From: a virus
Taxonomy: Duplodnaviria; Caudoviricetes
Length of the DNA: 32,132 bases
Virus record (IMG/VR): IMGVR_UViG_3300037423_000290
Location: 1 to 32,132 of that record
Direction: 5' to 3' (one strand)
Part shown: positions 3,585 to 26,527 of the stretch, piece after piece
How positions within the stretch are numbered: position 1 is the first letter of the stretch
Layout of the letters: every line of letters begins with the position of its first letter
Program-made: the position numbers and the translations under genes
The notes under the pieces: model-generated
Databases searched by the model: none
Seen by the model: only the letters and a program-made list of their open reading frames with translations
Told to the model about the DNA's origin: nothing

Positions 3585-3644
3585 CTCCTCCAGCCAGCAG
3601 TTATACATGCCCTGCCAAAGCAAGGCGATAGCATAGGCGCTCAT
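3549..3644 (-). CDS. 31-aa micro-ORF MSAYAIALLWQGMYNCWLEELKRSVERRLES
   Basis: ATGA-coupled to the phosphoesterase stop; paralogous interrupted copy starts at 3222. Confidence 0.5.
   Translation of the reverse strand: MSAYAIALLWQGMYNCWLEELKRSVERRLES
3582..3644. repeat. direct repeat copy B
   Basis: About 63-bp uninterrupted version of 3106-3222. Confidence 0.85.
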
Positions 3645-4402
3645 GCGTATTTCTCCTTGATGTAATGTAGCGGGACAAACATCTCATCAAAGCTGCCATC
3701 CTTGACGTTATGGAGCATGACGACGCCATGCCAGTGCTGGTTTCCCTGCGGGCCAAGATAACTTTCATCGTGCTCGTAGCAAGATCCGGCTATGATGGCT
3801 GTAATCTGCTTGCCGTCTGCCTTGACCGCGGTTGCCGACTGTCTGCCCTGCTGGTGACCGGCTATGCATGACATATGTTTCTTGTTCAGCATGGCTTGAG
3901 CTGACGAAGCCGGCCGCCCCATCGCGCCCGTGGTGAAATAGTGCGAAAACGCCACTCCTTCAATCACGACCACTTCAAGGAATGGATAGACTTCCCATCC
4001 ATACTCACGGTATTTAAGATCATCGATTCCGATCGTTCCGTCAAGTAGAGGCTCGTCATTGATAGCGCGGTCGATCCTGTGTTCATGGTTGCCGAGCGTG
4101 AGGACCATCCTGGGCTTATAGCAGCGCTTCTTGTTCCGCAACTGCATGAAGTTGTATTCACGGATCGGGCCGAGTAGCGCTTCCATGCCGGCATGTGCAG
4201 CCTGGATGTCTGCTCGGTAGCGACGCCCTTCGAAGGATTTCTTCCCTTTGTCGTAGCTGGACAGGCTTTCCATGTCCGCAAAATCTCCAGCATGCACGAT
4301 CACATCCGGGCGCTTGTCCATGATGTAGAGGCCGATTTGACGCAGGAAGGTGACGTCCTGATTGGGCTTTACCTGAGAATCAGGGATAAAGAGGATCTTC
4401 AT
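3641..4402 (-). CDS. calcineurin-like metallophosphoesterase
   Basis: IPDSQ, GDFAD, GNHE, FSH and GHQQ motifs; start at MKILFIPD (4402). Confidence 0.9.
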   Translation of the reverse strand: MKILFIPDSQVKPNQDVTFLRQIGLYIMDKRPDVIVHAGDFADMESLSSYDKGKKSFEGRRYRADIQAAHAGMEALLGPIREYNFMQLRNKKRCYKPRMVLTLGNHEHRIDRAINDEPLLDGTIGIDDLKYREYGWEVYPFLEVVVIEGVAFSHYFTTGAMGRPASSAQAMLNKKHMSCIAGHQQGRQSATAVKADGKQITAIIAGSCYEHDESYLGPQGNQHWHGVVMLHNVKDGSFDEMFVPLHYIKEKYA

Positions 4403-4587
4403 CAGTTCCCTCCGCGCGTAAACTCGCCGCAAAAGTCAGTGTCATCCACAGTCGGGAAGTCCGATGTAGAGCCGTCCGGCGACATGATCCAGATCGGCGG
4501 GAATCGGTGGCAGCGGCCGAACTCCTCGCCCTGCTCCGCACGGTAGAAGGCGCAGTTCTCGCATCTCATTACGCAATCGTCGCTCAT
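4402..4587 (-). CDS. small Cys-rich phage protein
   Basis: CENCAFY...GRCHRFPP...FP.V...DFCGEF; coupled to both neighbours. Confidence 0.75.
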   Translation of the reverse strand: MSDDCVMRCENCAFYRAEQGEEFGRCHRFPPIWIMSPDGSTSDFPTVDDTDFCGEFTRGGN

Positions 4588-24204: not shown

Positions 24205-24547
24205 TTTCCGTAATAACTACTCGAACCATTCCACCCTTTACCGGCTCCCTGCGGACCAGATGGAGCGAATCAATTTGCTCATCGTCCAACCACACGCCGG
24301 CATGCGTCAGAGCGTCTTGCAGCGCCTTGCTGCGGTTATCCAGATCCTGCCGCCGCCTGTCCGCTGGATGGATTGCTGCGAACAATGCGATGCGCCCCTC
24401 CAGCGTCTTATGCCCTGCCTCGGCTACGATCTCAGCGACTGCCTGCCTAAACGCCAGCCCTGCCGGCTTGATGAATCGACCGCCGCCGCGACGCTGGCCG
24501 TAGGCGTGGTTGATCGTGGGCGGCAGGGGTAGCGTTAGCGCAATCAT
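24185..24547 (-). CDS. rusA: RusA Holliday junction resolvase
   Basis: LPLPPTIN, P.DRRRQDLDN..KAL.DAL..AG...DD.QI. Confidence 0.93.
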   Translation of the reverse strand: MIALTLPLPPTINHAYGQRRGGGRFIKPAGLAFRQAVAEIVAEAGHKTLEGRIALFAAIHPADRRRQDLDNRSKALQDALTHAGVWLDDEQIDSLHLVRREPVKGGMVRVVITEIENVGK

Positions 24548-24885
24548 TTAATCCACACAAAAAACACGATCACCCATGCAGCTTTGCATGTGTAGTGGAT
24601 TAGTTGATCACCAAACATCGTCAGCTTGCCTTCGCATTTCAGCAGGTCAGTGATGGCATGAATAAATGCCTCGGCCAGACAGAGCCAAACGCTACCAGTC
24701 ACCAGAAACACGGCACCGCCATGAATCAGCGCATGGGATGACAGCGCATAGGGCCAGAACATCTTGCCGAGCTGCGTATTCGGATTCTTCGCCTGAGCCA
24801 GAAAGTCACCCTGAAGCGGATAGTCGGCCAGCGAGTGCAACACCAGCAGAGCCACCAACATTTCAAACGGTTGCAGATTCATCAT
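24544..24885 (-). CDS. DUF3307-like membrane protein (His/Asp metal-binding helices)
   Basis: HSLADYPLQ, HALIH, IHAITD..K, DQLIH. Confidence 0.8.
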   Translation of the reverse strand: MMNLQPFEMLVALLVLHSLADYPLQGDFLAQAKNPNTQLGKMFWPYALSSHALIHGGAVFLVTGSVWLCLAEAFIHAITDLLKCEGKLTMFGDQLIHYTCKAAWVIVFFVWIK

Positions 24886-25240: not shown

Positions 25241-25443
25241 TTCCTTGCCCTCATCCAGTTAATCCGCTGCTCCATGTTTTCCGCTGCCGTGTACCTGCTG
25301 CAATCGTGCTCAAACTCGGGACTCCGAACCTTTGCCGCTGATTCGAGAGTGCAGCGGCCTATCTGCGCTTCCCGGTAGTACGCGCTCTTTACCGTGCTCG
25401 GGAAGTGCAGCGTGTAGTTCGAGCATGTGCCGCATTGGGTCAT
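25237..25443 (-). CDS. small Cys-rich protein (68 aa)
   Basis: GGAGG RBS; MTQCGTCSNY...GRC...C; ATGA-coupled on both sides. Confidence 0.7.
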   Translation of the reverse strand: MTQCGTCSNYTLHFPSTVKSAYYREAQIGRCTLESAAKVRSPEFEHDCSRYTAAENMEQRINWMRARK

Positions 25444-26135
25444 GCTGCCTCCCCGAGCAAATTCGCCTGAGCTGGAACCGGCGTCCAAAACGGGCTGCAC
25501 TGGATCGAGTCCCAAACATCAGCCATCTTCCTTGCCCCGTTCTGTGGCCTGTTGTGGTTCCTGGCTATATCTGTGCTGTCCACGCTGGCAAATGGATAAC
25601 CCCAACGGGTTGCTGCCATGCCTCGCAGCATATGCAGCCAAGTCGGAACCCTTCCAGTCATGCAAATCAGGTTCATGGCATCGCACATCCTTCTGTGCCA
25701 GTTGTCCGCCCCAACTTCTGCATATTCGGCAGAAGAGCCGATGCAGACGCGCGGCCAGTTGTCGCACAGCTTCTGAAGCCTTTCCAGTGGTTCGTGCATG
25801 TGCCAAACTGGAGCGCCCCTATGACCATGTGGCCATTGCTTGATCAGGGCGTCATTGGCGTCTGTATCGCCAGTAATCACGTCAGGAATGACCGCCCAAG
25901 AAGTCTGGTAAGCCAGCCATTCATCTGCCCAAGCGTAAAAATCAGACCAATCCTGCTTTTCCTTGCCATTCCGCCAGAAGCTGAATGCTCCGTTATCCAG
26001 CATCACTCCCTGTCCGTTCTTATGGCACCATTCCACTTGGTCGGGCCGGAAATGCGACACACAGAAAAACCGTCCCGACAACTCATGCAGAGTCGCATAG
26101 GGGGTTATCGGCGTGCCGTGGTAGTGGATCGTCAC
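25440..26135 (-). CDS. TGT/DpdA-like transglycosylase-fold protein
   Basis: Ordered TIM-barrel TGT motifs: MLDNGAFS, IPDVI, PVWH, CIGSS, LHMLRG, SVDST. Confidence 0.75.
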   Translation of the reverse strand: MTIHYHGTPITPYATLHELSGRFFCVSHFRPDQVEWCHKNGQGVMLDNGAFSFWRNGKEKQDWSDFYAWADEWLAYQTSWAVIPDVITGDTDANDALIKQWPHGHRGAPVWHMHEPLERLQKLCDNWPRVCIGSSAEYAEVGADNWHRRMCDAMNLICMTGRVPTWLHMLRGMAATRWGYPFASVDSTDIARNHNRPQNGARKMADVWDSIQCSPFWTPVPAQANLLGEAA

Positions 26136-26138
26136 TTC

Positions 26139-26384
26139 TTAGCCAAGCAAATGTGTTGCGTGGACGCCCTGATGGACTGCCGACAGCTTTACAAAGCACT
26201 TGAAGCGGTCATAAAAGGATTGAGTGATCTTTTCGCCAAAAGCCTTCTTATGCAAAGCCGCTTCCAACTTGATATGCTCGACCATGAGCATGTCGTTGCT
26301 TTTTAACTCCAGCGAATAACAGATCATTTCCCCATCATTGGGGCACTCACTGACAAATTGATATGTATAAATATTGACCATCAC
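26139..26384 (-). CDS. minimal QueF-like T-fold protein
   Basis: FVSECPNDG (cf. QueF FTSLCP.TG), MVE, FGE (cf. FHE), HQGV; 3 nt upstream of the TGT-like gene. Confidence 0.65.
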   Translation of the reverse strand: MMVNIYTYQFVSECPNDGEMICYSLELKSNDMLMVEHIKLEAALHKKAFGEKITQSFYDRFKCFVKLSAVHQGVHATHLLG

Positions 26385-26527
26385 TTCCCCTCCCGATCCA
26401 TCTTCCCGTTAAGCCATCCAAACCAGTGCGCCCGCCCCTTCGATTTCAGCGGCTCCGGCTCGCCCCTAAATCCGCTTGCGTAGCCGGCGTTGTATTCCGA
26501 CTGCGATTGGTGAGCGAGTTTGGTCAT
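26381..26527 (-). CDS. 48-aa protein with Rmf-like GY..G..G...W.GW..G pattern
   Basis: MTKLAHQSQSEYNAGYASGFRGEPEPLKSKGRAHWFGWLNGKMDREGK*; coupled at both ends; missed by the track. Confidence 0.65.
   Translation of the reverse strand: MTKLAHQSQSEYNAGYASGFRGEPEPLKSKGRAHWFGWLNGKMDREGK

Follow-up and report, generated by a model that had tools for sequence, protein, structure and literature searches.

Phage DpdA enzymes are relatives of tRNA-guanine transglycosylase (TGT) that insert 7-cyano-7-deazaguanine (preQ0) into DNA. Some phages encode DpdA with no preQ0 synthesis genes, and a host precursor has been proposed for them. These DpdA-only phages form group 3 of Hutinet et al. 2019 (PMC6884629) and cluster DpdA/TGT_1 of a second study (PMC8306585); a YhhQ transporter is sometimes found in the group. 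MED16 and 7-11, the two members found with liquid chromatography–mass spectrometry data, are reported to contain 354 and 50 residues per 10^6 nucleotides, respectively, of dADG, the deoxynucleoside of 7-amido-7-deazaguanine (ADG), and almost no dPreQ0 (PMC6884629, PMC8306585). In both papers, the function of these phages and the origin of their dADG are named as open questions. The temperate soil phage considered here (IMG/VR record IMGVR_UViG_3300037423_000290, positions 1 to 32,132; this 32,132-nt stretch is the window) carries a dpdA gene of this group beside a gene for a miniature protein whose predicted T-fold resembles that of the archaeal enzyme QueF-L.

The two genes form a genuine, conserved unit, and chance does not account for them: the large protein has 4,642 homologues, the small protein has 132 relatives (at 50% clustering; 135 matches minus three long repeat-like proteins), and the small family is under purifying selection (median dN/dS 0.076 for 151 non-independent pairs drawn from 84 genes). 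An initial annotation, made from the sequence alone, had proposed scavenging of a host 7-deazaguanine. That idea had already been published for the DpdA-only group (Hutinet 2019), as had the DpdA half of the system. The small partner appears to be new: the published table gives neither QueF nor QueF-L for the six DpdA-only members looked up (PMC6884629), and searches of the literature accessible to us found no description of the small family. The locus is read here as a variant of phage 7-deazaguanine DNA modification with a previously undescribed accessory protein. It provides a phage protein of QueF-L shape whose family is linked almost solely to the DpdA-only group and occurs in three cultured and dozens of uncultured phages.

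The DpdA-family barrel

The large gene (25440..26135, minus strand, as are the features of both genes given below) encodes a 231-aa protein with the predicted fold of a minimal TGT-type (β/α)8 barrel. Its sequence makes it a member of the published DpdA-only group. It is 33–43% identical to proteins listed as DpdA in Hutinet 2019 (SEN1, SfI, BTP1, SPN3UB, Athena1, and 7-11) and shares motifs with MED16 gp38, 7-11 gp32, SEN1, BTP1, and SfI; blastp matches MED16 gp38 at E 1e-42 and 7-11 gp32 at E 3e-33, and five more listed members are among the tblastn matches. The best 50 VIA rows are all TGT-family. This homology and the TGT-family structural matches bear out the barrel assignment of the initial annotation. 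The motifs it quoted for both proteins are all present in order, here DNGAF, PD, PVWH, IGS, HMLRG, and SVDS. It was also right about the missing tRNA-TGT zinc site, since the protein contains no CxC or CxxC. No Pfam model matches at E 0.1, TGT PF01702 included.

Four residues correspond, by motif and spacing rather than residue-level superposition, to bacterial DpdA (bDpdA) residues whose active-site roles have been described (PMC10164549). Asp47 of DNGAF (25995..25997; bDpdA Asp95) is the predicted general acid/base and is conserved in 104/105 aligned homologues and 96/96 locus representatives. Asp85 of IPD (25881..25883; Asp130) and His112 of PVWH (25800..25802; His181) are predicted base-edge contacts, each found in 105/105 and 96/96. 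Asp186 of SVDS (25578..25580; Asp256), at the end of the last barrel strand, is the predicted nucleophile (104/105 and 95/96). Phe51 follows Asp47 by four residues, as Phe99 does in bDpdA. Asp189, near Asp186, is replaced in MED16, 7-11, and 28 of the 96 representatives.

The large protein very probably exchanges a base in DNA. DNA as the target, dADG as the product, and a low level of modification would follow by analogy from the literature on its kin, and the sparse modification proposed initially is probable given the two published dADG values. The bacterial DpdABC system of Salmonella Montevideo (PMC10164549) has the same DpdA active-site residues and is reported to make dADG from the preQ0 nitrile. 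There, however, DpdA needs the ATPase DpdB, and DpdC converts preQ0 within DNA. Here DpdA is instead accompanied by the small T-fold protein, and nothing resembling DpdB or DpdC was recognised in the window.

The top Foldseek PDB match is Cap10 of the type IV cyclic-oligonucleotide-based antiphage signalling system (CBASS; PDB 9ntn; bioRxiv 2025.04.06.647259), likewise a zinc-less TGT barrel and reported to bind protein-linked 7-amido-7-deazaguanine. The barrel might by this token act on RNA or on deazaguanylated proteins, for example to counter type IV CBASS, rather than on phage DNA. The very low modification of kin, which gave no restriction protection (PMC8306585), would fit, as would a second queC beside a TGT-like gene in two host genomes. 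Cap10, however, has 326 aa, works with the QueC-like Cap9 and a cyclase, and is reported to target protein (bioRxiv 2025.04.06.647259); no Cap9-like or CD-NTase neighbour was found among the scanned open reading frames (ORFs) of the window. For an RNA target, mentioned in the initial annotation, there is no positive support, and the kin reported as tested modify DNA. A role away from phage DNA is very improbable. The restriction protection suggested initially also fares poorly, as none was seen for dADG in MED16 (PMC8306585).

The small partner and its linkage to DpdA

The small gene (26139..26384) encodes 81 aa from GTG, or 80 aa if it begins at the ATG at 26381. Among 48,161 chains, QueF-L is the best structural match to the predicted model, and all 80 residues from 1 to 80 superpose on QueF-L 9–100 at 1.2 Å. 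The predicted fold is thus a single T-fold nearest QueF-L. The small-family profile matches QueF at E 1e-4, with agreement at the positions of Cys55, Glu78, Phe95, and Glu97; profile and structure together sustain the QueF-type T-fold proposed at the outset. The motifs FVSECPNDG, MVE, FGE, and HQGV occur in that order. With Pyrobaculum calidifontis QueF-L (PDB 5jyx, 5k0p) the protein shares the single T-fold, the position of the catalytic Cys, and the missing NADPH motif, a likeness drawn from sequence and model. In contrast to that enzyme, to which it is 14% identical, it is about 25 residues shorter, has Ile for the catalytic Asp and a conserved His between β3 and β4, is acidic, and is partnered with a phage DpdA rather than an archaeal TGT.

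The partner retains the QueF/QueF-L residues for preQ0 binding and nitrile attack: Cys14 (26343..26345), the predicted thioimide-forming nucleophile, aligned with QueF Cys55 and QueF-L Cys21 (131/132 relatives); Glu36 of MVE (26277..26279), a predicted preQ0 N9 contact like QueF Glu78 (130/132); and Glu51 (130/132) in Phe49-Gly50-Glu51 (26232..26240), the counterpart of QueF Phe95-His96-Glu97. His71 of HQGV (26172..26174), in the β3–β4 turn, is the family hallmark (121/123 non-gapped relatives). The catalytic Asp of QueF (Asp62) and QueF-L is replaced by Ile21 (26322..26324). The initial annotation listed this loss as unusual; it is a trait of the whole family rather than of this phage, with Asp in 2/132 representatives and 5/21 locus groups. 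Taken together, the residues once flagged as unusual do not, by sequence comparison, single out this phage.

What the partner lacks is QueF's reduction motif. The NADPH motif E(S/L)K(S/A)hK(L/Y)(Y/F/W) is absent at the Glu78-aligned position, where the family reads H/D-I after Glu36; a loose E[SL]K[SA] occurs in 3/132 relatives and, in this phage's protein, lies within strand 2, off the aligned site. The QueF family models PF14489 and TIGR03139 do not match this protein, and their best matches among 90 small-family members reach E 0.076 (Pfam, one member) and 0.012 (TIGR03139, two members). A QueF nitrile reductase was rejected on both grounds, and preQ1 formation, considered initially, is unlikely given the absent motif. 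Compared with unimodular QueF (Bacillus subtilis, 4f8b) and phage QueF (phiSM, VH7D), the protein is far shorter and lacks the NADPH motif and Asp62. All phage QueF sequences collected in Cui 2023 keep the NADPH motif, and none in that collection aligned with QueF-L. The zinc-binding HxH motif of the QueD fold (DpdL/QueD-like decarboxylase) is absent from the small protein. In sum, the partner probably binds a 7-deazaguanine and uses its Cys.

The two genes co-occur, as the initial annotation expected. Outward from the small gene (117 of 118 loci with a profile match, 66 clusters), DpdA lies within 3 kb in 59 of 60 evaluable clusters; six are too short to judge and one is without, and the figure may be inflated by a search seed that came from DpdA-linked genes. 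In all three distinct cultured phages matched by the small protein (Epa33, RHph_X2_30, and Mae-JY30), the small gene adjoins DpdA. Outward from DpdA (97 groups at 90% identity, drawn from 154 loci that include 67 genome loci and the best 80 of 579 viral matches), the flanks covered contain a QueF-like gene in 21 groups and a Vut_1/YhhQ-like transporter in 40; 10 groups have a PTPS/QueD-like gene and 32 have none of these, some groups having two. Within the DpdA clade of at least 64% identity, 11 of 12 groups have the QueF-like gene; the twelfth, L088, is the nearest DpdA relative and has a QueD-like gene in its place. No fusion of the small gene with dpdA was seen.

In the exceptional cluster (L306:3506-4153), a downstream ORF has a DNGAF motif (phrog_15826), a lead that may point to a second TGT-like family served by the same kind of partner. 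A QueD/PTPS-like gene with no obvious catalytic Cys before HGH fills the small gene's slot in L088:1424-1855, L032:1505-1915, L007:3708-4004, and L211; L032 and L211 carry both QueD-like and QueF-like genes.

Candidate chemistry of the pair

The favoured reading, held tentatively, is that the partner captures host preQ0 on Cys14 and releases ADG with no cofactor, and that DpdA swaps ADG for a few guanines of phage DNA. The small protein would act on the free base, holding host-made preQ0 as a thioimide on Cys14, with His71 standing in for the lost Asp. The thioimide would be resolved by water to ADG, rather than by ammonia to the archaeosine base (G+), or might not be resolved at all. After replication, ADG would take the place of a minor fraction of the phage's guanines, with DpdA most likely using a host base and working by a double displacement modelled on bDpdA, in which Asp186 is the nucleophile and Asp47 the acid/base. 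ADG as the partner's product is itself a provisional choice. ADG formed on the free base is preferred because dADG is the group's known product, genes in the same slot serve precursor supply, and the family is acidic.

This acidity (median net charge −3; 18/125 positive) is more in keeping with a free-base substrate than with DNA and, as a sequence property, argues mildly against any nucleic-acid substrate. The neighbours found beside DpdA all handle free bases or nucleosides: the transporter, the PTPS/QueD-like gene, nucleoside deoxyribosyltransferases (PF05014; beside or between the pair in L013, L047, L057, L077, L217, L228, L255, and L272), and proteins that join the small domain to a deoxyribosyltransferase (P0228) or to a QueD-like domain (P0255). 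The deoxyribosyltransferase neighbours and the fusions hint at base or nucleoside salvage. His71 aligns, in weak global alignments, with the HxC-motif His of FolE and with a QueF Arg, and in the model it could be the replacement acid/base.

Several observations weigh against this chemistry. In the model, it is only topology that places His71 next to the lost Asp. The substitutions D197N/A/H are reported to abolish E. coli QueF activity (PMC13740343), and in QueF-L this Asp likewise serves as the general acid/base (PMC5485725), so the Asp-less protein may be slow or inert. QueF-L, the closest fold, makes archaeosine from preQ0 that has already been inserted into a nucleic acid (PMC5485725). Unlike this phage, MED16 and 7-11 contain no small-family member yet have dADG; dADG therefore does not require the partner, which may serve to make a different product. 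Sequence profiles alone gave no link between the large protein and five bacterial TGTs (comparison not significant), and its net charge of −5 gives this DpdA no overall basic character. Published nucleoside data for a phage carrying the pair were not found in the literature accessible to us. Finally, this copy of the small gene may be drifting, because its product has three private residues at conserved columns (9/127 relatives have at least three) and its GC content is low (44% versus 55%).

Such drift could mean a functional family with a decaying copy here, so that the phage behaves as DpdA-only. The private residues Gly50, Cys22, and His78 occur in 0/89 other aligned members, and the atypical junction between the genes would fit, as would the low GC. 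But the ORF is intact, Cys14, Glu36, Glu51, and His71 are retained, and the leave-one-out profile score is close to the median (rank 49 of 127, counted from the lowest). The initial annotation saw in FGE for FHE a sign of a new product. The Gly is indeed private to this phage (His 84, Gln 46, Gly 1 among 131), and its codon, GGC, is two changes from a His codon. As an argument for new chemistry it is weak: QueF His96 is reported to contact O6 through its backbone amide, and H229A stays active (PMC13740343), so by analogy Gly50 is probably tolerated. That result also speaks against decay, which is improbable.

If ammonia instead resolved the intermediate, the small protein would be a true phage QueF-L: DpdA would insert host preQ0 into DNA, and the partner would convert it to dG+, on DNA or as the free base. 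The fold and Cys resemble those of QueF-L, but the catalytic Asp is missing in 130/132 relatives, and on account of Ile21 the protein is not classed here as QueF-L. The mostly acidic charge of the family also counts against it; Mei 2017 reportedly describes QueF-L with a basic tRNA-binding surface. No report of dG+ for this DpdA group turned up in the literature accessible to us, and this alternative is unlikely. By sequence, the xQE subgroup that keeps Asp seven residues after the Cys (L057, L129, L135, L143, and L147) would be a better candidate for a true phage QueF-L.

The partner could also be a non-catalytic supply factor that binds or traps preQ0, or poisons host QueF/FolE rings, leaving more precursor for DpdA and the inserted base unchanged. 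Loss of the Asp would stall chemistry while binding residues persist, the gene occupies the same slot as the transporter, and QueF competes for preQ0 in 5/5 host genomes checked. A nearby transporter is lacking in 13 groups with the xHE form and present in 5/7 with the xQE form, but this pattern is lost after kinship correction (eight independent pairs, median p = 1), and where the xHE form occurs the host itself often encodes Vut_1 (4/5 genomes). A near-invariant Cys and the hallmark His71 exceed the needs of binding, and a pure supply role is accordingly rather doubtful.

An extension of the favoured hydration chemistry, more speculative than that chemistry itself, casts the small protein as a cofactor-free nitrile hydratase on a QueF-L scaffold, with Cys-His replacing Cys-Asp. 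The pair would then be a two-gene kit, and by putting a QueD-like or transporter gene in place of the small gene phages would alter the choice of host-derived base that is written, possibly an uncatalogued one. Varying the base would make sense for phages, since bacterial glycosylases are reported to discriminate among 7-deazaguanines (bioRxiv 2025.10.29.685425). If the small protein hydrates or amidinates preQ0 without the canonical Asp, this would be a new reaction for the T-fold family.

Precursor supply, host, and locus context

No match to folE, queD, queE, queC, or queF was found among the 55 window ORFs compared with PHROGs, which agrees with the absence of the first four reported initially; the QueF Pfam model and the QueD-like and transporter profiles also gave none in the window, in a virus contig of an estimated 82% completeness. 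Because queC, queF, and tgt are present in 5/5 cellular genomes with related pairs, the phage likely relies on host preQ0, as was first supposed. The closest relatives in cellular genomes, from Polaromonas, Massilia, and Janthinobacterium (77–65%), suggest a betaproteobacterial host. Two host genomes have a second queC beside a weak TGT-like gene (G001:C24:473050-479173, with a Vut_1 gene as well, and G003:C8:323605-326254), loci resembling type IV CBASS or a related deazaguanine defence locus.

Both ORFs lie where first annotated, 3 nt apart; they are on the minus strand in one shared frame, with the in-frame junction TAA GAA GTG at 26133..26141. The +3 spacing is seen only in this phage; a −4 overlap occurs in 13/21 related groups. 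For the small gene, the ATG at 26381 is the probable start: a GGAGG ribosome-binding site (26389..26393) precedes it by 7 nt, and the publicly called gene has 80 aa. A TGATG overlap joins this ATG to a 48-aa ORF. The order of the early right arm is CI, Cro, CII, O-like, P-like, a helix-turn-helix (HTH) gene, the 48-aa ORF, the pair, DUF3307, and RusA. The initial annotation placed the pair just downstream of O/P, but the 111-aa HTH and 48-aa ORFs intervene between it and the P-like gene. Integrase, terminase, portal, and capsid genes are present elsewhere in the window.

The sequence of the pair is not an assembly error: it is identical over the 981 nt compared in two other viral contigs, and contigs from two of four soil or rhizosphere runs cover both genes with zero differences (these runs may be the record's own source). 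Low-depth contigs in two runs match the start of the small gene (26358-26410) and diverge upstream of 26410, which suggests that a related phage carries the module in different surroundings; one of these contigs has a Val-to-Ala change at residue 11 of the small protein.

Elsewhere, the small domain is also found C-terminally in 179–443-aa proteins with no Pfam match (P0155, P0162, P0170, P0217, and P0221). A small gene that reads as HTH-like from its sequence stands between the small gene and dpdA in L216, L221, L231, L235, L248, L252, and L253. In the window, the gene at 24544-24885 encodes the DUF3307 membrane protein, and a metallo-phosphoesterase gene (phrog_221; 3641-4432) lies downstream of the lysis genes.
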